Source: an uncultured bacterium (lineage in GTDB: Bacteria > Bacteroidota > Bacteroidia > Flavobacteriales > Flavobacteriaceae). Taken from it: DNA of 64,000 nucleotides. The stretch is taken from NCBI GenBank assembly GCA_965365355.1, contig CBDUBJ010000002.1, forward strand, positions 8,178-72,177, read 5' to 3'. This document shows, one piece after another, positions 3,121-56,274 of this stretch. The first letter of the stretch is position 1; every line of letters begins with the position of its first letter. A model generated the notes under the pieces. That model saw nothing but the letters and a program-made list of their open reading frames with translations. It had not been told where the DNA came from and made no database searches. The position numbers and the translations under genes were made by a program.

Positions 3121-3139
3121 CAAATTGGAAAATTTGCAA

Positions 3140-4666: not shown

Positions 4667-4748
4667 ACCTGTTTGCGAATCCCTTAACGTCCGTTTAGGA
4701 ATTTTCGGCATATTAAATCGTTAAACGGTTGCCAAACAATCGCAATTA

Positions 4749-4818
4749 TGCATTTCATCGAGTTTCTGGTGCATTGGACTGAACTTTTTTCACATAAATA
4801 AGCAATGACATAAATTTG
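4749..4818 (+). promoter_or_regulatory. pel-like operon promoter: -7 box plus two direct repeats 21 bp apart
   Basis: TGCATTTCATCGAG (4749-4762), TGCATTGGACTGAA (4770-4783) and TAAATTTG (4811-4818). Confidence 0.55.
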
Positions 4819-4861
4819 CTTTCGTATAGGTGTAGAAACACTTGTCAGGCAAACCGGACTT

Positions 4862-6400: not shown

Positions 6401-6440
6401 TCACCACGCCCCAAAACCCCATTTTCCAAAACCCTACTAA

Positions 6441-8054: not shown

Positions 8055-8847
8055 GATGATACTTTTTATCCTGCCGTCGATGCTGACCGGAGGAATAGCA
8101 GCCGCACAAACGTCGCGGAGCACGATCCTTGTTTGCTATGGCCGACTCAATCCGGTCGATATAAGCGGTTATTCGTACGTCATACTGGAATCACAGTATT
8201 ATAACGCCGCCGAGATCAAAACAATAAAGGCTCAGAATGATAAAGTCGTTGCATATATCAGCGTCGGCGAGGTAAACGCTAACGCCAAGCATTTTCATAC
8301 TTTGAAAAACGAAACGCTCGGAAAGAACAGTATCTGGAACAGTTATTATCTGAATATGAATTCAGATAAAACACGCAAAGTCTTGATGGATCTCATCGGC
8401 GAAGGACTTGCGCTCGGATATGACGGCTTTTTTCTGGACAATATCGATAATTTTACGAGTTTCGGGCCGCAGGCATTACAAAAACCACAATTGATTTCAT
8501 TCCTTCAGGAACTATTTGCCAAATATCCAAACGAAACATTTGTGCAGAATGCAGGTTTGGAAATTATCGACCAGACTGCGGCATACATTGATGCGTTGCT
8601 CATTGAATCCATTGCGACCGATTACAGTTTCGACAGCAAAACTTACAAACTTCGCGCAGACGGCGATTTCAGGAACTACGCCGGAAAACTTCGTAACATC
8701 CGCGAAAAATATAAGTTGCCGGTGATATTGGTAGAATATGCCGATACTGCAAAGCTTCACGATGCCGTAACCGAACGGATCAAACCGCTGGGATTTGAAT
8801 ATTTCATCGGAAATATCGATCTGCAGACAATACCAAAATTCAGATAA
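8041..8847 (+). CDS. Secreted endo-alpha-1,4-polygalactosaminidase-like hydrolase (GH114/PelA-hydrolase-like)
   Basis: Signal peptide ending AAA-Q (start may be the ATG at 8056); VAYISVGE, GYDGFFLDNID and LLIES motifs typical of GH114-type TIM barrels. Confidence 0.8.
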   Translation: MRLIRMILFILPSMLTGGIAAAQTSRSTILVCYGRLNPVDISGYSYVILESQYYNAAEIKTIKAQNDKVVAYISVGEVNANAKHFHTLKNETLGKNSIWNSYYLNMNSDKTRKVLMDLIGEGLALGYDGFFLDNIDNFTSFGPQALQKPQLISFLQELFAKYPNETFVQNAGLEIIDQTAAYIDALLIESIATDYSFDSKTYKLRADGDFRNYAGKLRNIREKYKLPVILVEYADTAKLHDAVTERIKPLGFEYFIGNIDLQTIPKFR

Positions 8848-8848
8848 G

Positions 8849-10816
8849 ATGTTACTAACCAGTTCAATTGTTTTGGGTTTTATCCGGCTGGCGTTCATCC
8901 TGCTGTTTTTCTTCTATCTGAATAAGAAATTTGTCAATAAATCGGATTCGAATAACCTGCTTGAATTTATCGTTCATCACTGGTTTCGATATGGAAGTTT
9001 TATCGGGATCATGCTTTTCGTAACTGTACAATTGAGCCTGTATAATCTGTTCAACTGTATGATCATTTTGATATTGATCATGACTATCGATATGATAGGA
9101 CTTAAAAATCTTCAAAATTTTAGAGCATATTTCAAGAATGCCGCCGCCAAAAACCTTCATGCGATCTTAAAGACGATAGAATTGCGGCGACCAAAATTTG
9201 CCTGGCTGCGTTTACGGAAAAAATCGCAGTCGAGGAGCCGCGGATATTTTATTTTTTTCCTGGTTGTCGTTCTTGCAATATTGATCTTTGGCAGCAGGTT
9301 TTACTTTATTCGGTACGATATGTATTCGCTGTCGGGGATCTGGCTTGGCGATCTTGCCAAGGTAAAAGATTTCGATTTCCAGATTTGGTTTTTAAACAAT
9401 ATCGCTGTTTCTGGAGATTTCGCTTTCGTAAACTTTTACTCCAAACTTACCGATGTCAGCCCTGAGATCGCCCTACAATCAATGGCACTTCTGGAATCGA
9501 CGCTAATTGGAATTCTGATTTTTTGGGTTGTTCGCAAATGTACGCCTTCACGTGCCATTGCACCGGTTATCGGAGCCATGTCGTTTGCACTGGCTTATAC
9601 ACTGATGCCGGTTAACGTGTATTTCCTGCTTCAGAGCAAGCCGATCCTTTTGGCATTGTCATTCGGACTTCCCGCAATGGTTTATTTACTAAAACCTGCG
9701 TTGTTGAAATTCAGGAAGATCAATTATTTCTTCGCAATGCTTTTTGTCTTTATAACCATCGGACTGATCGATTTATTTACCTTATATATATTGCTGCCGC
9801 CATTCGTAATTCTTGCGGGAATATTTTCCAAGCGGAAATCGAAAAAGCATTTCTGGGTTGGCGCGTTGGCATACATTGCGGGAGCGCTTTCCGTCTTTAT
9901 TATATATGGCATTGTTTGCTTTTTCCTTGAAACAGATTTGGAAACTTTCATACATACCAGCCTTATTTCGATAAGTTCGTATACTTACATTCCGCAGTTG
10001 ATCATTCCTTTTGATGTGCTTATCGATTATTATCAATTGGGATCTGTGGCCGCAATGCTCGTACTATTGGTTTACATTTTTTATCTGAAGGAAAATTGGT
10101 ACGCGGCATTTGCTTTCCTGATTTACTTTAACTTGCTTGTCCTATTGGGTAAGATGAATGATCTGACCTGGATCGACAAAGATTTGTTAAGCCAGGCACT
10201 GTCGGTTTTCATGCACATTGTCGCCGGTGTTGTCATTGCCATTGTTATTCGACTTGCCAAACCGATCTCGATCCGAACAGCGCAGTTAAACGTTCCTGTA
10301 GTTGTGGCCATTATGGCCGCACTGGTTTACGCCGCGGTGTATTATCAGAAAGACATGATCAACAGCCTTGACGAGATCGACACGACCCCAAAGCAGGTTT
10401 TGGATGCATACGATAAGATATCGACAACATATTTTCCTTTTTCATACGCTGTTGTAAACGACAACACGTCGCAGGCCATCAGTACGAACAAGCACTTTTT
10501 CATGAATTATCAAGATTTCATATACGATTACCCCAAACAGGATTCAATTTACTTTGCCAACATCAAAGACCCGAAATTTTTGAAAAAAAATCCCGAGTAT
10601 GCATTACCGAAAAGTGTGTTGATCTTTGTGTTCAAAGGTCGAAAACAGAGTATGTATGGTGAAAACGGGGATATTTCGGAAATACTGATGGATCAGCTCG
10701 ACACACTGAAAAAACGTGGCAGGACAGTTCAGCTTTTCTACACAAATGACGATATCAACGTTTATGAAGTCATAAATGAGCCGGGCGAAAGCAGGGTAGT
10801 GGACCTTATTTTCTAA
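8849..10816 (+). CDS. Polytopic membrane protein with a C-terminal soluble domain (GT-C-like architecture, family unknown)
   Basis: ATG 1 nt after the GH114 stop (the ORF track starts at 8795); more than 12 hydrophobic segments, then a soluble domain of about 150 aa. Confidence 0.7.
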   Translation: MLLTSSIVLGFIRLAFILLFFFYLNKKFVNKSDSNNLLEFIVHHWFRYGSFIGIMLFVTVQLSLYNLFNCMIILILIMTIDMIGLKNLQNFRAYFKNAAAKNLHAILKTIELRRPKFAWLRLRKKSQSRSRGYFIFFLVVVLAILIFGSRFYFIRYDMYSLSGIWLGDLAKVKDFDFQIWFLNNIAVSGDFAFVNFYSKLTDVSPEIALQSMALLESTLIGILIFWVVRKCTPSRAIAPVIGAMSFALAYTLMPVNVYFLLQSKPILLALSFGLPAMVYLLKPALLKFRKINYFFAMLFVFITIGLIDLFTLYILLPPFVILAGIFSKRKSKKHFWVGALAYIAGALSVFIIYGIVCFFLETDLETFIHTSLISISSYTYIPQLIIPFDVLIDYYQLGSVAAMLVLLVYIFYLKENWYAAFAFLIYFNLLVLLGKMNDLTWIDKDLLSQALSVFMHIVAGVVIAIVIRLAKPISIRTAQLNVPVVVAIMAALVYAAVYYQKDMINSLDEIDTTPKQVLDAYDKISTTYFPFSYAVVNDNTSQAISTNKHFFMNYQDFIYDYPKQDSIYFANIKDPKFLKKNPEYALPKSVLIFVFKGRKQSMYGENGDISEILMDQLDTLKKRGRTVQLFYTNDDINVYEVINEPGESRVVDLIF

Positions 10817-10818
10817 AA

Positions 10819-13800
10819 ATGGTAAAAACAAACAGATTATTCTTCTTTCGGATATTTGCAGCCCTTGCGGTGTTCGCCCTATTGTTTTCAGGGTGCGGGC
10901 GGCTTGACAATTTGGACGCCGACGATTTTGATTTTTTTGACAATGACGACGATAGGTCAGGTGCCGAGCTTCGCAGGTATTCCGATCCAGCCGAGTCTTC
11001 TTCGCCACTTGTTGAATATATTTTTGACAACGCCAATCCGACCAGTACAAGTTATGAAAAGCACATCAGGAAAATCTGCGATTATACCAAGCTTCCATAC
11101 CGTTCCACAAATCTGAAGGAATGGAGTGATTCACCGGAGATATCTTCGACAACACGGGTTATTTCGATACTTGAAACAAAAAAGCTGTCACAAAAAGCTA
11201 TCGAGCGACTGATTAAATTTGTGGCCGAAGGCGGAACTTTATTCCTGCCATTTGCCAGCGAAGACCACCGGATGGCATTTCTGATAGGCTTTAAACCCGA
11301 CGCCGAGTACGCCACCGATATCAAATCGAAAGGTTTCTTTTTCAAAGCGCCATTGCTTCCAAACATGAAAGGCAAAACAACAGGCGATGAAAATGTACAC
11401 TACGGATTTGCAAAAGATAATTTTACGAAAGACATCCGCGTCCTGGCCACAGCCGTCAACAATTCGGAATATCCGCTTGTCATCGAAAACCTGATTGGCA
11501 AAGGCCGGGTTGTTTTGTACAACACTTCGGGCAGCATGGAGAAAGTCGATCGCGGACTGCTTTTTTCGGGCATTTTAAAAGGCATTGAAGGAATTCCATA
11601 CCCAATCGCGAATACCAGTACAATTTTTCTCGACGATTTTCCATCGCCTTTATATGATGTGAAAAGCGAACCGATAGCTTCGGAAATGAACCTCTCGATT
11701 TCGGATTACGTGAAGAAAGTCTGGTGGCCCGACATGGTGGCGCTGGCAGAAAAGCACAATATGAGCTATTCGGCAATGATCGCATTTGATTATAAGAATA
11801 AAGTTTTACCGCCGTACATTTTCGATCAATGGGATGCTGTAAAAATTAAATCGGGCCGAAGAACCGAATCAATGAGCGACTGGCTTGTACGCGATGTTGC
11901 ACGCAAAGGTCATGAACTCGCATTTCATGGATACAATCACGTATCGTTGGTAAAAGAACTTTGGCCAAATCCCGAACATATCGGCCCGGCATTAAAAGCC
12001 GTGCAGAAGAAATGGGAAGTCAACAATTTCGGACCTATGCCTGTCACTTACGTGCCGCCTTCAAATATCATCGATAAATATGGCGTGAACGAACTCAAGA
12101 AAGGGATGCCTTCGCTAAAGTATATGTGCAGCCTTTACCTTGGCGAGATTGGCGACGGTGGCGGCCGCGAATTCGATTTTGATCCGTACAACAAGGACTT
12201 TTTCGATTATCCACGGATTTCCAGTGGATTTTACCTGAACGATAAAAAGAAGTACACCCACGAATCTATGTTTTTGTTCACTGGGATATGGACGCATTTC
12301 GTGCATCCGGATGATGTATATCAGATAGATAACCCGTTCAACATCAGTAAAGGTGATTATGAGCTACGAAACGGCCGTAACCTTGGCTGGCACAAAACGA
12401 AAGGCAAAGATTACGGACTCCTTTCCGAATTTACGGATTACATCGACCAAATGACCACCGCGTTTCCGCAGATGAGATTTTTGAATGCGGGTGATGGCGG
12501 CGCAATTGTAAACGACTGGCGTGCATCGCGTTTCCGTCATATGGGCGAAGACGGCAATTATATTGTAGAAGAAATCAATTCAAAAGATTCATTTACAAAT
12601 AAGCAGTATTGGTTTTTGTACGGAAGCCATGAAAACAGCTTAAAAATTGAAAACCAGCTTAAGAACGAGTCGGCAATTTTTTCGAAAACGCCATATATGG
12701 ATGGATATCTTTATATGGTATATACCTCGAAACCAAAACTTCGCCTGAAAGATCTTCAATATAAGAATAAGCTGCAGCCGGAACTTCTGACAAAAATATC
12801 GCGTAAAGTTGAAAATGATTACCGTCGTTTTCAGGGTAATGTCCAAAGATATCTTTCGGGCGGCGACATTAAAGTTGTCGATGAGGAAAAATTGTTCCAG
12901 CAGGAATTGGTTTCGCTGCGGAAAAAGATGCTGACGGATTCCAAAATCGATACGCTGACATGGAATAAATATGCGCGTTACATGAGCTGGGACGACCGCG
13001 GGAACGAAGTCTGGAAAATGCTTGAAGAACATTGCGTCAAGCATCCGCATAAGGAAAACATCATGTATTCCAAGATCCTGGCGCAGATTGTCGATTATCC
13101 AAATGAGCTGAGCCGTGAAAAGTGGATGAGTGCGCAAATGCTTGTGACGCCGAACGACAAAGATTTACTAAACAGCTATGTTGCATCGTTTTACACGCCT
13201 GAAAACCAGGAAAAGATCCGAAGGGCGCTCGTAAACCTGTTAAAGGTCGATACAAGTTTCAACACTTATCTTCAATATTTGCAGCATCTCCTCATGTATG
13301 ATCCGCCATCAGTGCTCAAAGAACTGGAAGGAAAGAAGCCCACGGCCGAATTTGCACCTGTTGCCACGGATGTCGCATGGTTATATGCAAATGAAGGTCA
13401 GTACGAAAAAGCATTCGAGTGGTCACAGTTCAGCGATGAGATCGATTTTGCATCCAAAATGAATTGGCTGATTGAAATGCGTGCTTACAAGATCCTCGAT
13501 CAGGAATATAAAAAGCATATTGCCGCCAATCCGGATGATTACCGCGTAAAGGCTGCAATGGTAAATGTTTATATGGATACCGGACGTTTTCGCGACGCGT
13601 GGATCCTGGCGAATTCGCTCCCTGAAATTCCGGAAAAAGATGAATTGCGTGATCTTTTAAATAAAGATGTGCTTTACGTTGAAAGCGATTTGCAGCAGGA
13701 ATTGCTTGCGGATCATTCTGAATTGTTCCTGCCGGAAGTTCGTGAAATGCTTGAGAAAACATACCGAAAGGAACGTGCAGACTTTGTATCATTCGACAGT

Positions 13801-14715
13801 CAGGCCGAATCAAATAAAAACGATCCGCAATCCTGGAGAAATATCCTGTCATACAATCATTATGATAAGAATCTGAATCTGCACTCATTCTCCGGGACGT
13901 ACAGCACGATGTATAAAGTGAATCTCCCGGTGAAAGACCTGGATAATGTTACGCACGCCATTGGTGGAATACAATATCAGTTTACGAGCAAAAAAACAGA
14001 TGAAAAACTGGAATATTGGTCGAAAGCACGCATTGAATACAGCGATTACCAGAAATTTTACTATCAGTTTGGCGCGGGCGCATTTCTATCTAAAAAGAGA
14101 AGCTTTCAATCGGCGCAGTTCAGGCTATATCCTGCCGAAACCGGGCCTGCCCACAGCAAGCGCATCTACCGGATGCAATTGAACTTGTACCAAGATTATT
14201 ATTTCATGAAGTATCTCAATGCAAGTGTTTCACTTGAGGGTAATTTCTACACTAAGAGTAAGGAAACAACAAACGTACGGATCGATCAATCGTATGAAGG
14301 TTCATTTACGGGCCGATTGGCAATGGATAAGCCTGAAGAGAAAAAGATGAAATTCATCCCTTTTGTAGAAGGCACGCTGACTCAGGCATCTGTTGGCCGG
14401 TCGATTATCAGTCCAAATCTCGGGTATCCATATTGGATGATCGATAAGCGATTATTCGGCGGCGGCGGGCTGGAGTGGAAGTACGGACTTAGCGAAGACA
14501 ACCTGATCGCAAGGGTAGAGGCAGCGTACTTTTTCGACGATTACACGGATCAGTTCCAGCGATATGCAGGAGAAATATCATATCAGCTGTTCGATTATAC
14601 GGCGGTAAGCGCATCGTTTGAAATCTATGCGCAGTCCAAATTTTATTCGAATGCAGTTCAGTTAGGCGTGAAGTACAATCTTAAGCCGCGCAAAAAAAAC
14701 AGGAACCGCGAATAA
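10819..14715 (+). CDS. Lipoprotein fusion: DUF2194/PelA-type deacetylase + TPR-like helices + C-terminal beta-barrel (PelA-PelB-like)
   Basis: Lipobox FSG-C26 followed by an acidic run; CE4-like IFLDDFP (D272/D273), HGYNH (H370/H374), YVPPSN and HFVHPDD motifs; Ala/Tyr/Trp-rich helical repeats at about aa 710-990; alternating beta-strand pattern at about aa 990-1290 ending GVKYNL plus a basic tail. Confidence 0.75.
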   Translation: MVKTNRLFFFRIFAALAVFALLFSGCGRLDNLDADDFDFFDNDDDRSGAELRRYSDPAESSSPLVEYIFDNANPTSTSYEKHIRKICDYTKLPYRSTNLKEWSDSPEISSTTRVISILETKKLSQKAIERLIKFVAEGGTLFLPFASEDHRMAFLIGFKPDAEYATDIKSKGFFFKAPLLPNMKGKTTGDENVHYGFAKDNFTKDIRVLATAVNNSEYPLVIENLIGKGRVVLYNTSGSMEKVDRGLLFSGILKGIEGIPYPIANTSTIFLDDFPSPLYDVKSEPIASEMNLSISDYVKKVWWPDMVALAEKHNMSYSAMIAFDYKNKVLPPYIFDQWDAVKIKSGRRTESMSDWLVRDVARKGHELAFHGYNHVSLVKELWPNPEHIGPALKAVQKKWEVNNFGPMPVTYVPPSNIIDKYGVNELKKGMPSLKYMCSLYLGEIGDGGGREFDFDPYNKDFFDYPRISSGFYLNDKKKYTHESMFLFTGIWTHFVHPDDVYQIDNPFNISKGDYELRNGRNLGWHKTKGKDYGLLSEFTDYIDQMTTAFPQMRFLNAGDGGAIVNDWRASRFRHMGEDGNYIVEEINSKDSFTNKQYWFLYGSHENSLKIENQLKNESAIFSKTPYMDGYLYMVYTSKPKLRLKDLQYKNKLQPELLTKISRKVENDYRRFQGNVQRYLSGGDIKVVDEEKLFQQELVSLRKKMLTDSKIDTLTWNKYARYMSWDDRGNEVWKMLEEHCVKHPHKENIMYSKILAQIVDYPNELSREKWMSAQMLVTPNDKDLLNSYVASFYTPENQEKIRRALVNLLKVDTSFNTYLQYLQHLLMYDPPSVLKELEGKKPTAEFAPVATDVAWLYANEGQYEKAFEWSQFSDEIDFASKMNWLIEMRAYKILDQEYKKHIAANPDDYRVKAAMVNVYMDTGRFRDAWILANSLPEIPEKDELRDLLNKDVLYVESDLQQELLADHSELFLPEVREMLEKTYRKERADFVSFDSQAESNKNDPQSWRNILSYNHYDKNLNLHSFSGTYSTMYKVNLPVKDLDNVTHAIGGIQYQFTSKKTDEKLEYWSKARIEYSDYQKFYYQFGAGAFLSKKRSFQSAQFRLYPAETGPAHSKRIYRMQLNLYQDYYFMKYLNASVSLEGNFYTKSKETTNVRIDQSYEGSFTGRLAMDKPEEKKMKFIPFVEGTLTQASVGRSIISPNLGYPYWMIDKRLFGGGGLEWKYGLSEDNLIARVEAAYFFDDYTDQFQRYAGEISYQLFDYTAVSASFEIYAQSKFYSNAVQLGVKYNLKPRKKNRNRE

Positions 14716-14727
14716 ACACGGTTCCTG
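14700..14727. terminator. Hairpin between convergent genes
   Basis: CAGGAACCG (14700-14708) and CGGTTCCTG (14719-14727) form a perfect 9-bp stem across the stop codon. Confidence 0.45.
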
Positions 14728-14775
14728 TAAATAAACAAACTAAACTTTCTACTAACTAAATAATAACCAAAGATA

Positions 14776-16404
14776 TTAGTGGCTGACGATAATTCTTTTC
14801 GTCTCCTTAGTGTTTCCGCCTTCAATAGATACGAAATATACTCCGTTGCTCAGGCTTTGCGTGTTTACAGTTACCTTGTCAGCAGAATCATTTCTTGTAT
14901 CAAGCGTGATTTTCTGGCCAAGTGAATTGTATACGAAAACTTTATAATCCGTGATCGATGGATATTCGATCGCGATCTGATCGTTCGCAGGAACCGGATA
15001 GATTACCAATTGTGGTTTTGAACCATCGTGGTCGCCGATTCCAAGTGCAGTTCCAACAGTAACGGTGTGGTTAAGGTTGTTGTAGCCTGTCGTAGCTTCC
15101 CATGTTCCGTTGTTCGCAGTCCGGATTGAATACTCAGGACGTGTTGACAATCCTGCATCTGAATCAGGAAGGCTCAGGAACATTTTATAATTACCCGATG
15201 CAATTGTTGCAGGCAATGTGATATTTTCAGTGATTGTAGTAAGAACTCCAGAATTCCAGAATCTTGGGTCGCTTGCCAAGGCAATTTTATGCTCCGCATT
15301 TGTAACCGTATTTCGAAGAACGATGTAAGCGGTGCGCGGTGTATAAGGTGTTGCAAAACCTACATTCTGGATCTTCAGCGTGATAGGCATTGCTGCACCT
15401 ACTGTTGCGTTTGTTGGGTAAGTTCCGTTACGTAATTCGAAGCGGTATCCAAGCCTGTTTTCGATTTCAGAAAAACAAGAATCATCTTGCCAGCTTTGCA
15501 ATACACCTGGATGGTATCCGATGTTGATGTATGACCAGTGGAATTTTTCCAATTCATCCAATGCAGTCGGACACTCGGAACGCGGTGCATTTACCGCGCA
15601 CGATTCGCCGCCCATCGGAAGGTATTTTGTTTCCTGCTCCATATATGCATAATCCGTAGCCAGGTTTCCATAAGTTCCTTCATCATCGTCGCTTGCAAGG
15701 AAGCAATCGTTGTGATGACCGGTTCTGGATAGCAAAGTATTTTGAAATGCCTGAGATTGATTCAGTGCAGTAGTAACATTGAATAAGCTTCTTTTGATCT
15801 TAGGTGTACGAACCTGAACCGTACGGTTTGCAGGAAGTGCGTTCAATAGCGCGTCAAGAACTTGTTTTCTGTTTGCGAAATCCGCAGCACTTGGCGTCAT
15901 GCTGAAGCTCGTGGTGTAATACCATTCGCCCCATGTTCCGATAAAACCGGCTTGCACAGTCGCAATAACGTCAGAATTGGCAGTAAGAATTGGCTTCAAC
16001 TGTGCAATATGCGCCAGGATCTGTGCTTTTGATGCATCTTGCGGCGTGCTGCTGTCATAATCGTCAGAATAAGCGAAACGGATGATGCATTTGATTCCGG
16101 CAGCTCTCATTTTTGCAAAGTCAGCTTGCATATTTGAGAGGTAAGTGCTTGAAATCGGGGCGCTGATGAAATCATCAAGATACCAAAGACGCAGTATCAG
16201 TGTAATCTTTTGGTTTGTCCGGTAACCGGTCAGTGATGACGTATTCAAGGGATCATAATCATTCGAGTGCGTTCCTTCGTGCTTGTAAAATCCTCTTTCT
16301 GGATTCGCGATCGCATCCGAAGTTGCCGAATAAGTCACATTTGTGTTTTGCGCGGCTCCTATGTAGGTTAAGAACAACGCGATCAGGGCAAAAAGTTTTC
16401 TCAT
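14776..16404 (-). CDS. T9SS-secreted DUF4874/DUF4832 putative glycoside hydrolase
   Basis: Signal peptide AAQ; IANPERGFY, AGFIGTWGEWY, HHNDCFLA and PMGGE motifs of DUF4874/DUF4832; Por-secretion CTD (IYPVPAND..VYNSLGQ..LSNGVYFV..KRIIV). Confidence 0.8.
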   Translation of the reverse strand: MRKLFALIALFLTYIGAAQNTNVTYSATSDAIANPERGFYKHEGTHSNDYDPLNTSSLTGYRTNQKITLILRLWYLDDFISAPISSTYLSNMQADFAKMRAAGIKCIIRFAYSDDYDSSTPQDASKAQILAHIAQLKPILTANSDVIATVQAGFIGTWGEWYYTTSFSMTPSAADFANRKQVLDALLNALPANRTVQVRTPKIKRSLFNVTTALNQSQAFQNTLLSRTGHHNDCFLASDDDEGTYGNLATDYAYMEQETKYLPMGGESCAVNAPRSECPTALDELEKFHWSYINIGYHPGVLQSWQDDSCFSEIENRLGYRFELRNGTYPTNATVGAAMPITLKIQNVGFATPYTPRTAYIVLRNTVTNAEHKIALASDPRFWNSGVLTTITENITLPATIASGNYKMFLSLPDSDAGLSTRPEYSIRTANNGTWEATTGYNNLNHTVTVGTALGIGDHDGSKPQLVIYPVPANDQIAIEYPSITDYKVFVYNSLGQKITLDTRNDSADKVTVNTQSLSNGVYFVSIEGGNTKETKRIIVSH

Positions 16405-16516
16405 AGTAGGTTAATTTTCAATTTCGCCGTAGGGCATTTATATTTAATTTGTTCTGACTCTAAATTGGGCATTTAGGTATCGTAAAGCAGACATTTTCAA
16501 ATCATTCTTACTGTCG

Positions 16517-16588
16517 CAAATCTATTTTAGCGCACCGATACACAAAATAAAAAAGTGTTAAAATTCATCTTTTAATCGACGAACTGCA
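16517..16588 (-). promoter_or_regulatory. DUF4832 gene promoter: -7 box and upstream operator-like motif
   Basis: Minus strand TAGATTTG (16517-16524) and TGCAGTTCGTCGAT (16575-16588). Confidence 0.5.
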
Positions 16589-16701
16589 ATTTTAACGCTC
16601 AAAAATAAAATAATTCTTACAGTCTAATGATGATTTGTAAGTAAAAATTGAATAAAAACGTGCTGTTTTTCTTAACAAATAACTTTTCGATTGTTGATAA
16701 G

Positions 16702-16823
16702 TACGATAAATCGAATAAAATCATCGACGAATTGCATTGCTGTTCGACAAAGTGCAACACGTGCATCGACGAAATGACTGTTTGAATCGTTAAAGTGAAA
16801 GTGCCAAATATCGATGAAACCCA
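16702..16823. repeat. Array of imperfect 14-bp direct repeats with ~21-bp period
   Basis: ATCGACGAATTGCA (16723), TTCGACAAAGTGCA (16743), ATCGACGAAATGAC (16765), ATCGTTAAAGTGAA (16786), ATCGATGAAACCCA (16810), and a weak copy at 16702. Confidence 0.7.
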
Positions 16824-17001
16824 TATTTGGGCATTTTTAAGATTTCGTTTTTCCTGGTTCCAAACGTCAGCATTTAGCCGCAGACTTTAACGCTTATATT
16901 TGAATTATAATTTATATTATGTAAAATAGAAAATATGATTGTTGCCCTTGTTTCCTTTATCTATATAAAGTACTTTTACGAACAGCTATTTTTTGTACAT
17001 C

Positions 17002-18915
17002 ATGAACGTCATTGCGACCCGCGTGGCCGACTTCCTAAAAGAATTCCAGCCTTTTTATAATCTATCCCACGAGAATCTGTTGCAGATCGCAACGGCAATA
17101 CGCGTTATCCAGCTTGAGAAAAATAAAATGCTGTTTCGTATTGATGATCCGTTGCACGACAGCTTTTATGTCGTTGCCAATGGCGTTATCAATTTATTCG
17201 TAGTTTCGGACGCCGAAGAACAACTATTGAATAAATGTTTTCCCGGTGATATTTTCGGGCTTCGTCCTTTCTTCGCTAAGAATAATTATATGATGACTGC
17301 AAAAGCCCGCGAAGACAGCGTCGTTTATGCAATTCCAATCGCAATCTTCCGTCCGTTCGTCGCCGGAAATCCCGAAGTTCTCAATTTCCTTCTGGAAAGT
17401 TTTGCTACCAATACCAGAAACCCTGACGATAAAAAACGCGGGAAACTCATTTCTGACCAGGTTCATTATGGTGATTCGCAGCCCGAGATCCAATATTTCC
17501 AATCGCTTTCTTATAATAAATCTCCTCTAAAGTCGTCTTCTGTCGCTTTAATAAAGGATATTGCTCAGATGATGACCGACAATCTGATGGATTGCGTGCT
17601 GATTTCCCAAAGTAATAAGCCTGTTGGAATCATAACCGACATGGATCTTCGCGCAAAGGTCGCTACAGGCCGATATCCCATCACTGCTACTGCAGACAAG
17701 ATCATGGCCTCGCCAGTAGTCACGGTAGCAGAAAATGTGTCGCTTGCCGAAGCCCAACTCTTGTTGCTTAAAAATAACATTACGCACCTTTGCGTAACCC
17801 ACGACGGCTCTGAAAACTCGGAAATAAAAGGCATTATCGCACAGCGCGATCTTATTGTCGCTCAGGCTAGTAATCCTGGCGTGTTAATGAAGGAAATAAA
17901 GCGGTCGCAAAATGCGGCAGACTTGAAAATCGTGCGCAGCAAGTTAACAGATCTTGTGTCGACGTCCATTTCCAAAAACATTCCTCTTACACATATTAAT
18001 AATATCGCCGGAGAAATTAATCTCGCGATGATACGCCGCTCAATCGAACTCGCAATTCTAGGGTTGGGCTCTCCTCCTGCACGTTTCGCATGGCTCAGTA
18101 TCGGAAGCCAGGGCCGAAAGGAACAACTGCTTCATACCGATCAGGATTCGATTCTCGTCTTCGAAGATGTTTCGCAGGAAAAATACCGCGACGTCAAGGA
18201 TTATTTCCTCAAACTAGCCAAGCGGACGACCGCCATTCTTGAACATATCGGATATCCACTTTGTCCAAATGGGCATATGGCAAGCAACATGTTATGGTGC
18301 AAATCGATTTCCGACTGGATCAAACAGTATACAAACTGGATGACCAAACCCGGAGAGAAAAACAACGATATCAGCAGCATTTTCTTTGACTATGAAATTG
18401 CCTTTGGCGAACTGAAGCTTGAAGAGGCGATTACTGAAGCGATCTTTTCGAATGTTGCCGTGAAAAATTCTTCTTTCTTTGATTATTTGGGCAATGACAC
18501 TTTACGGAAGCCGCCTGCGCTAAGCTTCTTTAAGAAATTCAATGTCGAAGAAGAAGGCGAAAACGAAGATAAATTCGATATTAAAAATCGGGCTCTTATG
18601 CCGCTCGTTGATGGTGCCCGCCTTTTGGTACTTAGCCAGAATATCCGCGGCATCAATAATACTTTTCAAAGATTCAAGCAATTGGCAATGGTCGAGCCAC
18701 GTCATGCCGATGTTTATCTAAATTGTGCCGAAGCATTTCTCGTACTTTCAAAGTTTCGCACACAGGAAGGTTTAAAGTATGACTCTAACGGTCAGTTTAT
18801 TAATATCAAGGAGCTGTCAAGGAATGACCGCGATCGATTGAAGAACGCACTTGCGCCGATGCGCGATCTTGAAGATATCATCAAAGACAAATTCAGGTTA
18901 ACCCAATTTTCGTAA
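17002..18915 (+). CDS. cNMP-binding + CBS-pair + DUF294 nucleotidyltransferase signal-transduction protein
   Basis: cNMP domain (GDIFGLRP), two CBS motifs (VGIITDMDL, MASPVVTV), Pol-beta-like GSQGRKEQ..TDQD, and DUF294_C (FDIKNRALMPLVDGAR). Confidence 0.9.
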   Translation: MNVIATRVADFLKEFQPFYNLSHENLLQIATAIRVIQLEKNKMLFRIDDPLHDSFYVVANGVINLFVVSDAEEQLLNKCFPGDIFGLRPFFAKNNYMMTAKAREDSVVYAIPIAIFRPFVAGNPEVLNFLLESFATNTRNPDDKKRGKLISDQVHYGDSQPEIQYFQSLSYNKSPLKSSSVALIKDIAQMMTDNLMDCVLISQSNKPVGIITDMDLRAKVATGRYPITATADKIMASPVVTVAENVSLAEAQLLLLKNNITHLCVTHDGSENSEIKGIIAQRDLIVAQASNPGVLMKEIKRSQNAADLKIVRSKLTDLVSTSISKNIPLTHINNIAGEINLAMIRRSIELAILGLGSPPARFAWLSIGSQGRKEQLLHTDQDSILVFEDVSQEKYRDVKDYFLKLAKRTTAILEHIGYPLCPNGHMASNMLWCKSISDWIKQYTNWMTKPGEKNNDISSIFFDYEIAFGELKLEEAITEAIFSNVAVKNSSFFDYLGNDTLRKPPALSFFKKFNVEEEGENEDKFDIKNRALMPLVDGARLLVLSQNIRGINNTFQRFKQLAMVEPRHADVYLNCAEAFLVLSKFRTQEGLKYDSNGQFINIKELSRNDRDRLKNALAPMRDLEDIIKDKFRLTQFS

Positions 18916-19509
18916 ATGCTCGAATGGCTTAAAAATATCAATAAGGAATATCCGGAATTCTGGAAGCGATATCTTGTCAAATTTGAGAAGAAGCCAGAGC
19001 GATATGTCGTTTTGCGAACGCATTCATCCGGACACAATCCATTAAAAGATGTAATTTTTTCATTTGGCGCAGTTTCGATCATCCATGACCAGATCATTAT
19101 CGGCGACAGTTTCGAAGTCATGTTGTATCAGTACAAATATCTGCATGACAATGACTTGCCAAATACATTTATCATAGAAAGTCCGCTAAAGAAAATGCAC
19201 GAACCACAGGCGATCGAAGAGCTCGTAGGTTTTATTGGCAACGCGATCCTGGTTGGTCATCAGGTTCATCATGATGTCGATCTGATCAATGAAGCTCTCG
19301 ATAAATTAAATGCCGGGCGATTAAAAAATGAAGCGCTTGATCTTGAGATCATGCATCGAAAATGGAAAGATACCGATAAACATTTTAATATCGATGAGCT
19401 GCTTTCGGCTTATAAATTTGCGCGAGGTGAAAATTTTACAGCATCCGAAGAGGCGTATTATCTTGCTTTGGTTTTTCTGCAACTGAAATCAAAGTTGGGA
19501 ATCAAGTAA
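18916..19509 (+). CDS. DnaQ/DEDDh exonuclease-like protein, catalytically degenerate
   Basis: Fold motifs VVLRTHSSG, LVGHQVHHD and FTASEEA; ExoI D/E are replaced by R34/H36 and the ExoIII His is lost; abuts the DUF294 gene. Confidence 0.75.
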   Translation: MLEWLKNINKEYPEFWKRYLVKFEKKPERYVVLRTHSSGHNPLKDVIFSFGAVSIIHDQIIIGDSFEVMLYQYKYLHDNDLPNTFIIESPLKKMHEPQAIEELVGFIGNAILVGHQVHHDVDLINEALDKLNAGRLKNEALDLEIMHRKWKDTDKHFNIDELLSAYKFARGENFTASEEAYYLALVFLQLKSKLGIK

Positions 19510-19983
19510 ATATATCACTTCACGAAATCGTCCGTGATGGCTGACAGATGCGATGTAATTCTTATCTTTTATTTCTACAAAAGGAATATAATTTACTGTT
19601 TTGATTTTCATGCAGTTACCATCTTTTATCTTTCTTAATGATTCAAAATCTTCCGCGCATCTGGAAGCAATCAGATCATTTGAAAAACTTGACTTGCCAT
19701 GATATCGAAATTCTTCAAATCGGACAATTGATGTTTGATTGTTGGGATTATAGCTGCATTCAAATGACTTCGGATTATATTTCCGTATTCCGGTTTTTCT
19801 GTTGGCAATCTTATACGCGGATTCTTTAATGCTCCAGATTGTCCAAAAAATCAATTCAGGTTGTTCAGCCGATAAAACTGTAGCGATTTCGCTGTCGGTA
19901 AGGACTTTCTGAAAATAACCTTTTCGCCAGATATTGCTTTCACGCCTTGCGGCTTCAAAATCCACTACATCATTACCGATCAT
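19489..19983 (-). CDS. 4'-phosphopantetheinyl transferase (AcpS-like)
   Basis: MIGNDVVD and WSIKESAYK motifs. Confidence 0.9.
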   Translation of the reverse strand: MIGNDVVDFEAARRESNIWRKGYFQKVLTDSEIATVLSAEQPELIFWTIWSIKESAYKIANRKTGIRKYNPKSFECSYNPNNQTSIVRFEEFRYHGKSSFSNDLIASRCAEDFESLRKIKDGNCMKIKTVNYIPFVEIKDKNYIASVSHHGRFREVIYLLDSQL

Positions 19984-20234
19984 TTTTGTTCTATTTTCTG
20001 CTGAATAATATCAATCGATGCTTTAACCGTCAGCATTTTTTCCATCGATTCATTGTCGATCGTAATGTCGAATTTTTCCTCAACATCCAGTACGACATCA
20101 ACGAGGTTTGCCGAATTGATCTTCAGGTCTTTGATGAAATCGGTATCCTCGCCGATTGTGTCGAGCGCAGGCAGATTTTTGGAATATGGCTTTACAATTT
20201 CCTTGAGCTGTACAATAACGTCGTGGCGATCCAT
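19980..20234 (-). CDS. Acyl carrier protein
   Basis: Acidic 84-aa protein with DLKINSANLVD (Ser attachment site) and EEKFDITI. Confidence 0.9.
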   Translation of the reverse strand: MDRHDVIVQLKEIVKPYSKNLPALDTIGEDTDFIKDLKINSANLVDVVLDVEEKFDITIDNESMEKMLTVKASIDIIQQKIEQK

Positions 20235-21499
20235 CAGATTTTAAATTTCCTAAAGATAACACAAGCATTTACATCACCAAAACCAAAACTTGCCTTCGCG
20301 ACGATATTAAGATCCATATTTTGAGTTGCAAACGGAATTCTGTTACGATCCACCATTTTCTCAATTTCCGGATGAAGATCTTCGCAATTAAGATTTGCCG
20401 CGACAAAGCCTTCCTTTAGCTGAAGAATCGCCGCGATAGCTTCGATGCTTCCCGATGCTGATAAGCAATGTCCTATCAATGATTTCGTCGCATTGAGGTA
20501 CGGAAAGTCAGCTCCTTCCCTTTTCAATGCCTGTGACCAATTTGCGATTTCTAATGGATCTTTTGACGTGGCTGTGAGATGTCCGTTTATAAGATCGATT
20601 TCTTCAGCATTAATTCCTGAGTGCTCGATTGCCTTTCTGATGCAACGCTGCACCGCGATGCTGTTTGGAGCTGTCATTGTTCCTCCATTTCGCTGGCCGC
20701 CCGAATTGATTTCCCCACCCAAAATTTCACAATAGATATTTGCGCCGCGTTTAATTGCTTCATCCAAATCTTCGATGACCAAAGCTCCTGCGCCGCTTGC
20801 AGGCACAAAGCCTGATGCCGATGCGCTCATTGGACGTGAACCTTCCACAGGATTATCATTGTGCTTGAATGTGCATACACGCATCGCATCAAATCCTGCC
20901 CATATATACGGGCCGGAATCACTTGTGCTGCCAGCCAAAATGCGTTTCGCTTTGCCCGACTTGATACGATCGAAAGCCATCAAGATGCTTTCCGTTCCTG
21001 TTGTGCACGCCGAAGAATTTGTAGTGACCTGATTTCCGAGTCCGAACTTCCCTCCGATCCACGCGCTGATTCCGCTGTTCATAGTTTGGGAAACCGCAGT
21101 GCTACCAAGCCGCCGCGTTTGATGGGCATCGATTTTATAGATGCTTTCCCTGAATTTTTCGATTCCGGATGTTCCTGTTCCGAAGATGGTTCCGCTGTCC
21201 CAATCAGGATGATCGTTTAATGTAAGTCCTGCATCTTCCCAAGCCTCGGATGCTGCCAGAATGCCGTACAATATGCCCGTCGCTGCGAAATTGCGTAATT
21301 CCAATTCACTGAAATGCTTATCGATTAAATCTTGCGTGAGTTTCGGTCTCCCTGAAATCCGGCATGAAAACTCAAGCTCTGCCAGTTGAGGATCGAATTC
21401 TATTCCCGAAATGCCATTGCGCAATGCTTGGATGAATTCCTCTTTCGAGTTTCCGTTTGGAGCTACAACTCCGATTCCGGTAACCACTACCCTATTCAT
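20234..21499 (-). CDS. Beta-ketoacyl-ACP synthase (FabF-like)
   Basis: VVVTGIGVV; Cys in SSACTTG; His in NGHLTAT and IGHCL; SFGFG. Confidence 0.9.
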   Translation of the reverse strand: MNRVVVTGIGVVAPNGNSKEEFIQALRNGISGIEFDPQLAELEFSCRISGRPKLTQDLIDKHFSELELRNFAATGILYGILAASEAWEDAGLTLNDHPDWDSGTIFGTGTSGIEKFRESIYKIDAHQTRRLGSTAVSQTMNSGISAWIGGKFGLGNQVTTNSSACTTGTESILMAFDRIKSGKAKRILAGSTSDSGPYIWAGFDAMRVCTFKHNDNPVEGSRPMSASASGFVPASGAGALVIEDLDEAIKRGANIYCEILGGEINSGGQRNGGTMTAPNSIAVQRCIRKAIEHSGINAEEIDLINGHLTATSKDPLEIANWSQALKREGADFPYLNATKSLIGHCLSASGSIEAIAAILQLKEGFVAANLNCEDLHPEIEKMVDRNRIPFATQNMDLNIVAKASFGFGDVNACVIFRKFKI

Positions 21500-21929
21500 T
21501 TCCTGAAATTATCATCCCGGCGATCGTCGCGCTGCAAATCGGTAATCCGTTTGAATTATACATTGATACATAGCATTTTAGCTTACCAAATCTAAAGTAC
21601 TTTTTGATTGATTTTACGATGACTTTGTCGCCGGGATAAACACTGTTTTCGAATTCCGCTTCCACCGATGTCAATGCGATGCTACGATTTTCTTTAGTGT
21701 CGCCGAGCAAATAGATCCCGAATGCAGTCAATCCAATCTGTGCCATCGTTTCTATCAGGATAACACCCGGAGTGACAGGCCTGTCTTTAAAATGGCCCGC
21801 GTAAAAAACAAGATCATTTCTAAATGTAAAATTTCCTTCAATCGATTCTATATCGACCTGTGTGATTTCGTCAACAAACAAAAAAGGCTCACTATACGGC
21901 AGACGGGAAATTATTTCGGAATGTTCCAT
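21492..21929 (-). CDS. 3-hydroxyacyl-ACP dehydratase (FabZ/FabA-like)
   Basis: LPYSEPFLFVD and GHFKDRPVTPGVILIETMAQ hot-dog fold motifs. Confidence 0.9.
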   Translation of the reverse strand: MEHSEIISRLPYSEPFLFVDEITQVDIESIEGNFTFRNDLVFYAGHFKDRPVTPGVILIETMAQIGLTAFGIYLLGDTKENRSIALTSVEAEFENSVYPGDKVIVKSIKKYFRFGKLKCYVSMYNSNGLPICSATIAGMIISGNE

Positions 21930-22705
21930 CAGCCGAGACTTTCGCCGCCATCGGCAATTATTGTTGTGCCGGTAATCCAGCGCGCTTCATCTTTGCATAG
22001 CAGATATGCGACATTTGCGATGTCTTCAGGTGTCGTAAGCCTGTTGTTTGGATTGCGCTTAACTCCTATTGCCAGTATCTTATCGCTGTTGGGAATACGA
22101 CGCATTGATTTTGTGTCGGTAACCCCTGCACAAATACAATTGCTTTTAACTCCGAATGGCGCCATTTCCAGTGCAATGCTTCTTGATATTGCTTCGAGAG
22201 ATGCCTTTGCTGCTGAGACGGCTGCATAATTTATCATCGATTTTCGACTTCCTTCCGAAGTGAAAGCTATAATTCGGGTATCAGTAGATAATATATTAGC
22301 TTTTAGTAATTTATCAGTCCAATCGTAAAGGGAAATTGCCATTGAATCGACGGTAATTCTGAAGTCCTCTGACGAAAGATTCTGGTTTCCTGTCATTGGC
22401 TTCAAGCTGCCTTTCGCAATGCTGTGAATCATGCAGGAGATGTTACCATTGCCAATTTCGGATTGAATTTTTCGAATGATTTCGTCCACATCTCGTACCG
22501 CATCTTTATTAAATGTAAGCAGCCTGATTCCCGCTTGGCTGATCGAATGAAAACTCTTTTCGACTTCCTTCATATTTTCCCGTGTATCGCGGTGCACGAT
22601 GATCAGGTTCATTCGATGTGCTGCGAGCTTAACTGCCGTCGCCAAACCCAGGCCGCTGCTGCCGCCTAAAATCAAACCCCATTTATTTTCAAATTCCTTT
22701 ACCAT
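21929..22705 (-). CDS. Enoyl-ACP reductase (FabI/FabL-type SDR)
   Basis: GGSSGLG; the Y-x6-K motif YAAVSAAK typical of enoyl reductases. Confidence 0.8.
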   Translation of the reverse strand: MVKEFENKWGLILGGSSGLGLATAVKLAAHRMNLIIVHRDTRENMKEVEKSFHSISQAGIRLLTFNKDAVRDVDEIIRKIQSEIGNGNISCMIHSIAKGSLKPMTGNQNLSSEDFRITVDSMAISLYDWTDKLLKANILSTDTRIIAFTSEGSRKSMINYAAVSAAKASLEAISRSIALEMAPFGVKSNCICAGVTDTKSMRRIPNSDKILAIGVKRNPNNRLTTPEDIANVAYLLCKDEARWITGTTIIADGGESLG

Positions 22706-23751
22706 TTTAGCAGAACACGTTGTGCGGAAAATCCAGGTCCAAAACTCAACATCAATCCTGTTTCAGATTTTCTAGGTTTGGTTTTTAAAATTTCTTCAAG
22801 GACATAAAAAACAGTTGCACTTGACATATTTCCGAATAGACGCAAGATCTCTTTGGTGGCTTTGATATTTCTGCCGTATTCGTGAAAAATCCCTTCGACA
22901 GTCTGGATGATTTTTTTTCCGCCTGGATGAAAGATCAGATGATCTATTTGATCCATCGAAAGGCCGTTCTTAGAAAGAAATGGCGAGATGATATTATCGA
23001 AGTGCGAAGCGATCGTATCGGGAACTTCAATGTCTAAAACCATCTTTAAGCCGTTATTCGTAAGTTTAAATCCCATCATGTGTTCGGCGTCGAAAAAATG
23101 ATACATTCCGCTATCTATGATTTCCGGACCTTCCGCAGTTTCATCGGACGTCAATAAAACACACGCCGCACCATCGCCAAAGATAGCAGCACTGACCACG
23201 TTTGCCATCGAATGATCCTCAAGTTGAAATGTTGCCGTAGGCGATTCAAATGCAATTACAGCCGCACGTTTTCCGGGATTTGCTTTGAGAAATTCGTTTG
23301 CATAAATGATTCCTGAAATTCCAGCTGCGCATCCCATTTCGGTAACCGGAAGCCGGACAATATCCTGCCTGAGTTTTACGAGATTTATCAGATATGCATC
23401 AAGCGACGGAATCATGATTCCTGTGCAGCTGACAGTTATTATAAAATCAAGTGTTGAAGGTTCCCAGTTTGCGGTTTGCAGCGATTTTCGCAGCACCTTC
23501 TCGCCCATTTCAATGGCTTCGCGAGTATAAATATCATTTTTTTCCTCAAATGAAGTCGCCGTGAAAACTTCCGATGGTTCCATGATGGAATAGCGTGTAT
23601 CGACAGCAGCATTTTCGAAGATCTTTTTGACCTTTCTTACAAACCTCTGATCTTCGCCATCAAGCCACGAATCGACATAATCGAGGACTTCGGATGTATG
23701 TCGGGAATATTTCGGAACCTCGCTGCAGGCTGTGACAATTCGTACACTCAT
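22699..23751 (-). CDS. Type III polyketide synthase (chalcone-synthase-like)
   Basis: Cys-His-Asn triad: MGCAAG, FHPGG, FGNMSS; also FGDGAA and SFGPG. Confidence 0.95.
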   Translation of the reverse strand: MSVRIVTACSEVPKYSRHTSEVLDYVDSWLDGEDQRFVRKVKKIFENAAVDTRYSIMEPSEVFTATSFEEKNDIYTREAIEMGEKVLRKSLQTANWEPSTLDFIITVSCTGIMIPSLDAYLINLVKLRQDIVRLPVTEMGCAAGISGIIYANEFLKANPGKRAAVIAFESPTATFQLEDHSMANVVSAAIFGDGAACVLLTSDETAEGPEIIDSGMYHFFDAEHMMGFKLTNNGLKMVLDIEVPDTIASHFDNIISPFLSKNGLSMDQIDHLIFHPGGKKIIQTVEGIFHEYGRNIKATKEILRLFGNMSSATVFYVLEEILKTKPRKSETGLMLSFGPGFSAQRVLLKW

Positions 23752-24455
23752 TTGTTAAAGATAATCCATTGATATCGGAACGCCCAACGCCATTTTATCA
23801 AATATTTCGAGATTCCCGCTTTTTGGCAATATTCTAACAAGTCCTGTTTTTTAAAGCCACGCAGAATTGAAACAAGTCCGTCCTCGCGCGACATTTGGTT
23901 CAATGAAAAAATTGCGCAGATGAGTTTGAATAATTTATAGGCAACTTTGCTTCGCTGCAAGTCGTTGATCACAATTCCGACCAATGCCATTTTTTTAAAT
24001 TGCTGCAGCAGCGCCAATATCTGCTCGTCTGAAAAATGGTGAAGTGTAAGCGTGCATAAGATAATGTCGCATTTCTGCGATTCAAATTCCGAAGAAAATA
24101 TGTCCAGAGTTCGAAATGAAATCCTGCTTTGGTCTGATAATTCCTTGGCGTTCTGTATTGTCGCCGGATTGGCATCGATGCCGGTCAATTTAAAATTCAA
24201 ATTATTCCGGAGCGCAAAGTCATCGAGTTCCCGAAGCATATCGCCATTCCCGCATCCGATGTCGATAATCGAAAATTCACGATCAGGTTCATTTGCAATC
24301 AATTTTTTGACTCCGTCGATCGTGATCCGGTTTCCACCCAGAATTCGATTAATTATAGCTATTTTCTGCAGTGCATCAACGAGCATTTCACCGCTTAGGG
24401 TAAAATCATCCATCATTTCGGCTTCGGTCGACCTGAATGTCGTATCGATTTTCAT
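23748..24455 (-). CDS. SAM-dependent methyltransferase
   Basis: IIDIGCGNGD motif I; LTLHHF; INDLQR. Confidence 0.9.
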   Translation of the reverse strand: MKIDTTFRSTEAEMMDDFTLSGEMLVDALQKIAIINRILGGNRITIDGVKKLIANEPDREFSIIDIGCGNGDMLRELDDFALRNNLNFKLTGIDANPATIQNAKELSDQSRISFRTLDIFSSEFESQKCDIILCTLTLHHFSDEQILALLQQFKKMALVGIVINDLQRSKVAYKLFKLICAIFSLNQMSREDGLVSILRGFKKQDLLEYCQKAGISKYLIKWRWAFRYQWIIFNK

Positions 24456-54836: not shown

Positions 54837-54908
54837 AATTGTTGGTTTTAGATTAATTGCAAAGGATCGCAATAAATCTATAAAAAATGTTTTACAAACC
54901 AACGTAAT

Positions 54909-56270: not shown

Positions 56271-56274
56271 GCTC

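Follow-up and report, generated by a model that had tools for sequence, protein, structure and literature searches.

A helically phased repeat shared by the promoters of a pel-like operon and of a convergent gene for a predicted secreted DUF4832 enzyme in Flavobacteriaceae

The 64,000-nt stretch of DNA analysed in this study (contig CBDUBJ010000002.1 of assembly GCA_965365355.1, an uncultured member of the Flavobacteriaceae; hereafter the window) carries two neighbouring transcription units, a pel-like operon that begins with a pelF glycosyltransferase gene and ends with a gene for a DUF2194 protein, and a gene for a DUF4874/DUF4832 protein predicted to be a cargo of the type IX secretion system (T9SS). 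The promoters of both units share a 14-bp box, which we call box1, a second and weaker copy of it (box2) 21 bp closer to the gene, and a -7 box of the Bacteroidota sigma-A type (Table 1), and the arrangement is preserved in related genomes. The likeness had been noticed in a sequence-only reading of the window, which took the two units for co-regulated and suggested that the DUF4832 protein may act on the Pel-like polymer. The units are convergent, as that reading had it; between them lies one hairpin with a 12-bp stem, which is likely to be a bidirectional terminator. The loci closest to the window are those of Flavobacterium genomes and metagenome-assembled genomes.

Table 1. Features of the two transcription units and their promoters, in order of position in the window. 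PWM, position weight matrix; aa, amino acid residues.
Feature	Position	Strand	Basis or remark
pelF promoter box1, TGCATTTCATCGAG	4749-4762	+	exact pattern match; distal copy of the putative regulator-binding repeat
pelF promoter box2, TGCATTGGACTGAA	4770-4783	+	degenerate copy at +21; abuts T-run and -33 region
pelF -7 box, TAAATTTG	4811-4818	+	Bacteroidota sigma-A type
pel-like operon	4862-14715	+	Pfam and NCBIfam; genes overlapping or <=40 nt apart
PelF glycosyltransferase	4862-6400	+	DUF3492 + GT4; NF038011 PelF equivalog, 160.8 bits vs cut-off 100
PelG-position polytopic membrane protein, 537 aa	6441-8054	+	matches no Pfam or NCBIfam family
small GH114 hydrolase with leader peptide	8041-8847	+	GH114 at 80 bits
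membrane protein, 673 aa	8795-10816	+	matches no family
DUF2194 PelA-deacetylase-like protein, 1298 aa	10819-14715	+	DUF2194 at 239.9 bits
hairpin between the convergent units	14699-14728	.	12-pair stem, 7 GC pairs; T-run after it on the - strand, A-run before it on the + strand
DUF4874/DUF4832 gene, 542 aa	14776-16404	-	Pfam PF16173, PF16116, PF18962
T9SS type A C-terminal domain, aa 466-540	14785-15009	-	PF18962, TIGR04183
beta-sandwich, aa 322-451	15052-15441	-	AlphaFold2 model
TIM barrel, aa 30-320	15445-16317	-	AlphaFold2 model
signal peptide, aa 1-19	16348-16404	-	hydrophobic leader MRKLFALIALFLTYIGAAQ
DUF4832 -7 box, TAGATTTG	16517-16524	-	read from sequence
-33-like TTTG of DUF4832 promoter	16543-16546	-	18 nt upstream of -7 box
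DUF4832 promoter box2, TGAATTTTAACACT	16554-16567	-	degenerate copy, 21 bp 3' of box1
DUF4832 promoter box1, TGCAGTTCGTCGAT	16575-16588	-	exact pattern match
array of five same-orientation copies (16723, 16743, 16765, 16786, 16810)	16723-16823	-	repeat search + PWM
cNMP-binding/CBS/DUF294 nucleotidyltransferase	starts 16993	+	divergent neighbour of DUF4832 gene; exonuclease-like gene next

Both spacings given in the sequence-only reading, 48 nt from TGCATTTCATCGAG to the -7 box of pelF and 50 nt from TGCAGTTCGTCGAT to that of the DUF4832 gene, are exact. When the window was scanned with a PWM built from orthologous sites, box1 of pelF scored highest (20.8 bits) and box1 of the DUF4832 gene second (19.8 bits) of ~128,000 positions. 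The pattern TGCANTTCRTCGA with <=1 mismatch is matched 6 times in the 64 kb, against 1.66 expected, a count that 1 of 100 shuffles reached. The core TTCRTCGA occurs 13 times in the window, and the intergenic occurrences, 5 in number, all fall within the promoter regions of pelF and DUF4832. The weaker copies at +21 which that reading had also described are present at both promoters, but each scores <4 bits, so that in the window alone they are indistinguishable from chance.

The comparison with other genomes comprised 29 genome loci gathered with the DUF2194 protein as anchor and 85 further places gathered with DUF4832 homologues. A pattern derived from the window only was found, in the right orientation, in the 300-nt region preceding pelF in 13 of 18 loci and in that preceding the DUF4832 gene in 7 of 20, with 0.007 occurrences expected per region in either case; these frequencies lend in silico support to the shared regulation suggested earlier. 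Box1 itself is present in all 19 orthologous pelF promoters and in 38 of the 40 DUF4832 promoters. Carriers of both locus and motif include the culturable F. longum, F. saliperosum, F. cauense and F. agri. At pelF the distance from box1 to the TAnnTTTG box is 48 nt (11 loci), 59 nt (seven) or 50 nt (one); at DUF4832, 36 of 40 promoters have a distance of 50-51 nt, one has 49 nt, and an unlinked paralogue described below has 40 nt; the gap from box1 to the -7 box shifts, that is, by about 11 bp, or one helical turn. Columns of box1 and of the -7 box carry 1.4-1.7 bits of information each (1.68 per column in the -7 box of pelF), compared with 0.3-0.8 in the diverged flanks.

The box2 position is conserved as well. 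At pelF it is kept as (T/A)(G/A)(C/A)GTTnAAC(T/A)GAA, after which comes a T-run; the distance of GAAC to the -7 box is exactly 26 nt, and the columns have 1.4 bits each vs 0.6-0.8 in the flanks. Among orthologous DUF4832 promoters the box2 position is kept as nnnATTTTAACA(C/T). The most distant orthologues (L017, L018, L024, L054) have a near-perfect second copy TACATTTTATCGAT at +21, as in TGTATTTCATCGAT-N7-TACATTTTATCGAT, and the weaker copy is therefore best understood as a degenerate proximal repeat. An inverted repeat, GTTAAAAT ... ATTTTAAC at 16554-16565 / 16588-16599, flanks box1 of the DUF4832 gene on both sides, and GTTAAA(A/T) precedes box1 in about half of the orthologous DUF4832 promoters; box2 of this gene may, to judge from these letters, double as half of a palindrome. 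When the 22-bp palindrome GCATTTnnTCGAnnAAATGC was considered as the general motif, it held at some DUF4832 sites (e.g., L033) but not at pelF sites, which leaves the direct repeats as the general feature. A reading of TGAAC and the T-run at pelF as a promoter of an extracytoplasmic function sigma factor was rejected, since nothing is conserved 16-17 nt downstream and TAnnTTTG stands at a fixed 26 nt after GAAC. A scan with the sigma-70 consensus, which is uninformative for Bacteroidota, gave 6 sites vs 6.3 expected.

In the 1.59 Mb of gathered DNA, the composite of box1 and a phased -7 box occurs 52 times, and 48 of these occurrences are at pelF or DUF4832 promoters. An unlinked 920-aa DUF4832 paralogue with He_PIG repeats, found in an unrelated neighbourhood in L033/L034, keeps box1, box2 and the -7 box, which argues that the motif tracks the gene rather than the location. 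As a separate observation, two related genomes (L002, 20356-20369, and L022, 20191-20204, both on the - strand), these two only and not the window, carry a complete box1, with a -7 box following 59 nt downstream, at the 3' end of a ketoacyl synthase gene and upstream of a phosphopantetheinyl transferase gene. Another element, TTCTTAC(A/T), is conserved at DUF4832 promoters (L004-L032), 20-50 nt upstream of box1, and not at pelF promoters. It was recognised from conserved columns, inspection by eye and a repeat family, with the window's two clearest copies on the opposite strand, at 16499-16515 and 16608-16624 (+), and may be bound by a second factor that serves only the hydrolase gene.

The DUF4832 protein matches PF16116 (DUF4832) with 236.2 bits (cut-off 29.2) and PF16173 (DUF4874) with 172.1 bits. 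Its designation as a T9SS cargo, made in the sequence-only reading, is borne out as a prediction by the N-terminal signal peptide together with a type A sorting domain that exceeds the cut-offs of both PF18962 (52.7 bits vs 27) and TIGR04183 (49.2 bits vs 23). The C-terminus matches solved T9SS C-terminal domains, e.g., 8glj_D, and this sorting domain was the only part of the protein matched in a sequence search of solved structures. Another protein with the same T9SS C-terminal domain is encoded at 53796-54902. In the AlphaFold2 model (predicted local distance difference test score, pLDDT, 86.5), eight beta/alpha units (aa 38-320) are followed by a beta-sandwich (322-451), a low-confidence linker and the sorting domain (466-540). 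Foldseek relates the model to GH5 and GH26 mannanases and endoglucanases and to GH14 beta-amylase (E ~1e-8, TM-scores only 0.3-0.5). The predicted fold class is clear, a TIM barrel of the glycoside hydrolase type without a close solved structure. Among 79 relatives with 36-56% identity, E160 (WGEW, after strand 4), E267 (GGE, at the end of strand 7), the HNDCF sequence at 231-235 and the cysteine pair C234/C269 are each conserved in >=97%. By analogy with clan GH-A, we infer that E160 and E267 are the candidate catalytic acid/base and nucleophile.

The family was called uncharacterised in the sequence-only reading, which no longer wholly holds. In streptococci and clostridia, the accessory genes that adjoin pelDEA(DA)FG were reported to include open reading frames with DUF4832, along with CotH, a polyphosphate polymerase and DUF4956 (Whitfield 2020, PMC7112168). 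More recently, SIR_1591 of S. intermedius was described as a TIM barrel with a DUF4832 beta-domain whose structural neighbours are beta-amylase- and beta-galactosidase-like, and in purified form it was as effective as PelA(H) in disrupting Pel-dependent aggregates (2025 mBio, PMC12345266). The suggestion that a DUF4832 protein acts on Pel thus has an experimental precedent.

The order of the operon genes is conserved in L002-L025. PelA-type hydrolase and deacetylase modules are represented by the GH114 and DUF2194 proteins, the latter domain belonging to the PelA(DA) deacetylase protein of Gram-positive bacteria (PMC7890745). In Pfam and NCBIfam searches the PelG model PF16933 did not match the 537-aa protein, whereas a canonical PelG in L084 scores 502 bits, and no PelD/PelE module, the cyclic di-GMP (c-di-GMP) receptor, was recognisable among the operon proteins; for these two reasons we call the locus pel-like rather than canonical. 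Pfam covers residues 69-603 only of the DUF2194 protein, and the C-terminal ~700 aa, unannotated and conserved across the genus, could substitute for the missing PelB/PelC export parts.

The co-occurrence of the DUF4832 gene with pel-like operons, which the sequence-only reading had named as a check, holds across species. In all 21 genome loci that reach far enough, the gene right next to that of the DUF2194 protein, in convergent orientation, is the DUF4874/DUF4832 gene, at identities down to 39%. L030-L032 show the same junction, as do all full-length metagenomic orthologues on contigs that continue past the gene on that side. It is invariant, whereas the neighbours on the far side vary: the spacer upstream of the DUF4832 gene measures from ~350 to 2400 bp in relatives and at times holds cbpA/cbpM or a lipoprotein gene. 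Moreover, a metagenomic contig of an unrelated lineage (L084, 1-13322) encodes canonical PelF and PelG and a 926-aa GH114 protein and, after the pel genes, an 838-aa DUF4874/DUF4832 protein and a second GH114 protein with a GH114_assoc domain. By its gene content this is a third lineage in which the DUF4832 family is paired with Pel. Another DUF4832 relative, in L073, is located among GT4 and acetyltransferase genes.

From these sequence data we consider it rather likely that the Pel-like operon and the DUF4832 gene are under one regulator and that the enzyme acts on the Pel-like polymer outside the cell; the first part, control of both promoters by one regulator, is probable. The proposed cis-regulatory module would consist of direct repeats TG(C/T)AnTT(C/T)(A/G)TCGAT, spaced by 21 bp (two helical turns), before two promoters, with the promoter-proximal repeat abutting the -33 region of a Bacteroidota sigma-A promoter. 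The pel-like operon would be driven by the first of the two, the convergent gene of the secreted DUF4874/DUF4832 enzyme by the second. A single regulator would bind both as a tandem dimer or oligomer, presumably activating rather than repressing transcription from fixed faces of the helix, with sites centred at roughly -46 and -67, and additional distal sites could assist by cooperative binding or looping. Phased repeats upstream of -33, with gaps that change by whole helical turns, point to an activator contacting RNA polymerase from one face of the DNA, and since the arrangement is identical at the two promoters, both would be switched in the same direction. The enzyme would be exported by Sec and then by the T9SS, and would most likely cleave the Pel-like polymer, rich in N-acetylgalactosamine and galactosamine, extracellularly, beyond the reach of the periplasmic GH114 protein. 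As it appears to be co-activated with synthesis, trimming, release or sizing of the polymer during production seems a more likely role than that of an opposed dispersal switch.

Several observations weigh against this reading. Relatives at 40-50% identity without the T9SS domain are mostly found away from pel genes and lack the motif; L084 and L073 are exceptions. The DUF4832 family is also very large: clustering at 50% identity gives 5361 clusters, of which the best 150 representatives all have E <1e-100. A search for sequencing runs that hold the sequence of 14000-17200 returned none. The pel loci of Brevibacillus and Ilyobacter (L026-L029) have no DUF4832 homologue within 10 kb, and in S. 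intermedius deletion of SIR_1591 gave no phenotype (PMC12345266). No transcription factor gene was found among the 30 window reading frames scanned (3125-19983, 29278-54902) or upstream of pelF in L010. As to the statistics, the binomial P values for the window-only pattern (~1e-24 for pelF, ~6e-11 for DUF4832) overstate independence because the compared genomes are related, and counts based on the PWM are partly circular because it was trained on orthologous sites, a circularity from which the test with the window-derived pattern is free. Finally, adjacency alone could be inherited gene order, as the block from a helicase gene to the DUF294 and exonuclease genes is syntenic across the genus.

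That synteny, the size of a family most of whose members are not linked to Pel and the 64-kb extent of the site search in this genome would suit an explanation in which the motif is the site of a broad global regulator, the enzyme has a different glycan as its substrate, for instance a polysaccharide from the diet or the environment, and the two units are adjacent by descent. We regard it as unlikely, given that composite sites elsewhere in the gathered DNA are so few, that other neighbours come and go (the cbpA/cbpM and lipoprotein insertions, or a polyketide synthase-like cluster absent from L030 and L032) and the DUF4832-pel junction never does, that DUF4832 genes have independently come to accompany pel loci in L084, streptococci and clostridia, and that one member of the family does degrade Pel aggregates.

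The shared site is not confined to the box pair. Five copies, absent from the sequence-only reading, form an array that lies 135-235 bp upstream of box1 of the DUF4832 gene; their starts are 20, 22, 21 and 24 bp apart, and their PWM scores are 16.6, 11.5, 10.1, 8.4 and 11.8 bits. In the 588-bp spacer that holds the array, ~0.2 sites of >=8 bits are expected by chance per strand. All motif copies in this spacer (16405-16992) are oriented towards the DUF4832 gene. Distal copies recur in many species, 116-235 bp upstream of box1 and in either orientation at DUF4832, and 61-114 bp upstream of box1 at pelF. In L002 and L030, box copies overlap or directly follow the -7 box. Distal sites at such distances and in either orientation are typical of looping systems, and the window array resembles sites of the wrapping type; together with the copies at the -7 box, they would agree with operators of a repressor, or of a DNA-wrapping or structuring protein, that silences both promoters by looping or occlusion. 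The sites overlapping the core promoter are, however, not conserved, and the invariant box pair upstream of -33, helically phased and displaced by whole turns, has the usual geometry of an activator, so this explanation appears as improbable as that of a global regulator. Chance similarity in AT-rich intergenic DNA, for which the low scores of the +21 copies and the one shuffle that equalled the observed count might be cited, is refuted by cross-species conservation and has a negligible probability, the two sites being the two best PWM matches in the window and standing at fixed, phased positions in dozens of genomes despite diverged flanks.

Some further features of the vicinity are to be mentioned. 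The motif was also considered as a control element of the divergent DUF294 gene and rejected as such, since no strong site lies near the DUF294 start where another gene intervenes between it and DUF4832 (checked in L002, L003 and L004). A conserved AT-rich element of ~30 bp, TTTTCTATTTTACATAATATAAATTATA as read on the - strand, lies at ~16925-16955 upstream of the cNMP/CBS/DUF294 gene and also in L018, L030 and L032; it probably serves that gene as a promoter or operator, without relation to the Pel motif. A hidden small gene in the 16405-16992 spacer was discarded, as this interval holds only reading frames of <=50 aa, for which no counterparts were noticed in the relatives read, and an Rfam search of both promoter regions found no structured RNA. 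The only Rfam matches are elsewhere in the window, where two Flavo-1 RNA motifs exceed the Rfam gathering threshold (56198-56272, +; 59879-59949, -). The polyketide synthase-like cluster, at 19489-25570, was read from translations as genes for a phosphopantetheinyl transferase (confirmed by Pfam), a ketoacyl synthase, a dehydratase, a reductase, a type III polyketide synthase-like protein, a methyltransferase and an FAD-dependent enzyme; since L030 and L032, although syntenic in other respects, lack the cluster, it is a variable insertion.

Pel is widespread as a polymer of biofilms, and its control is understood mainly through c-di-GMP, which acts via FleQ and PelD in Pseudomonas and via PelD in Bacillus. 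How Pel is regulated where the c-di-GMP signal is missing was explicitly asked in the S. intermedius study (PMC12345266). The promoter module described here can be used directly as bait for the regulator in Bacteroidota, and it predicts a two-promoter regulon that is easily tested with reporters. The partnership of Pel and DUF4832 hydrolases would be extended from Gram-positive bacteria to a Gram-negative phylum, where the outer membrane has to be crossed, by the predicted route of the T9SS, and the DUF4832 enzyme is a candidate biofilm-disrupting reagent. A more far-reaching version, which we put forward tentatively and hold to be rather doubtful, is a dedicated flavobacterial Pel regulon, in which a new transcription factor on the 21-bp-phased repeats co-activates polymer synthesis and a T9SS-exported hydrolase. 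The hydrolase would be an integral step of extracellular processing, by which the polymer's chain length, or its cell-free as against cell-bound form, is set. If so, matrix biogenesis would include the T9SS, in a phylum apparently without c-di-GMP control of Pel.

The geometry of the repeats has parallels in two families of regulators. Phased direct repeats are typical of AraC/XylS activators, and XylS binds direct repeats of TGCA-N6-GGNTA at a 21-bp spacing, of which the proximal repeat overlaps -35. The sites described in this study resemble these in having two direct repeats 21 bp apart, with the proximal one touching the -35/-33 region, in the occurrence of distal sites in either orientation, and in that each unit consists of two sub-elements about one helical turn apart (TGCA ... 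TCGA); the match in sequence, unlike the geometry, is limited to TGCA. Among LytTR regulators, AlgR acts at several upstream sites to control an exopolysaccharide operon, and the core of its site, which we take to be CCGTTCGTC, resembles the motif core AGTTCGTC. The 9-bp LytTR core, presumably [TA][AC][CA]GTTN[AG][TG], is fitted by CAGTTCGT at 16575-16588, but the position of its G is variable across orthologous sites (T 58%, G 26%). LytTR regulators bind two 9-bp direct repeats, 12 bp apart (PMC4005675), and AgrA P2/P3, ComE and AlgR at algD are known cases of imperfect direct repeats that recur every 21 bp just upstream of the promoter (PMC4005675, PMC4227749). The 21-bp distance from box1 to box2 at both promoters and the spacings within the array conform to this pattern; in contrast to LytTR sites, the conserved unit here is 14 bp long and the G of the GTT core falls on a variable position. 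By analogy, either a LytTR-type response regulator or an AraC/XylS-type protein would fit as the regulator.

Among known Pel systems, the closest likeness is to SIR_1591, with which the window protein shares, by description, the DUF4832 domain, a TIM barrel followed by a beta-sandwich, beta-amylase-like structural neighbours and a predicted extracellular location. Like SIR_1591 and the other Gram-positive pel accessory genes, the window gene is encoded beside genes of the pelF/pelG type. It differs from SIR_1591, which has an N-terminal membrane anchor, in its cleavable signal peptide and T9SS type A C-terminal domain, and from the Gram-positive DUF4832 accessory genes in forming a separate convergent unit outside the operon. 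Unlike the Gram-positive loci, the window locus also encodes a GH114 protein, and the CotH, polyphosphate polymerase and DUF4956 companions are absent. The PelA hydrolase domain from P. aeruginosa and the separate PelA(H) gene of B. cereus are likewise Pel-locus hydrolases, which cleave the polymer and influence both cell-free Pel and the disruption of biofilms, but they belong to the GH166/GH114-like fold family, unlike the DUF4832 enzyme. As the window has its own GH114 gene for the PelA-type role, the DUF4832 enzyme would be an additional, secreted hydrolase. In our searches of the literature, no account of a pel-like locus in Flavobacterium, or of how it is regulated, was found. Thus, the enzymatic link between Pel and DUF4832 is already known; new are the predicted T9SS-secreted version of the enzyme in Bacteroidota and, as read from the compared sequences, a sharply defined and widely conserved promoter module common to a Bacteroidota pel-like operon and the putative hydrolase gene next to it.

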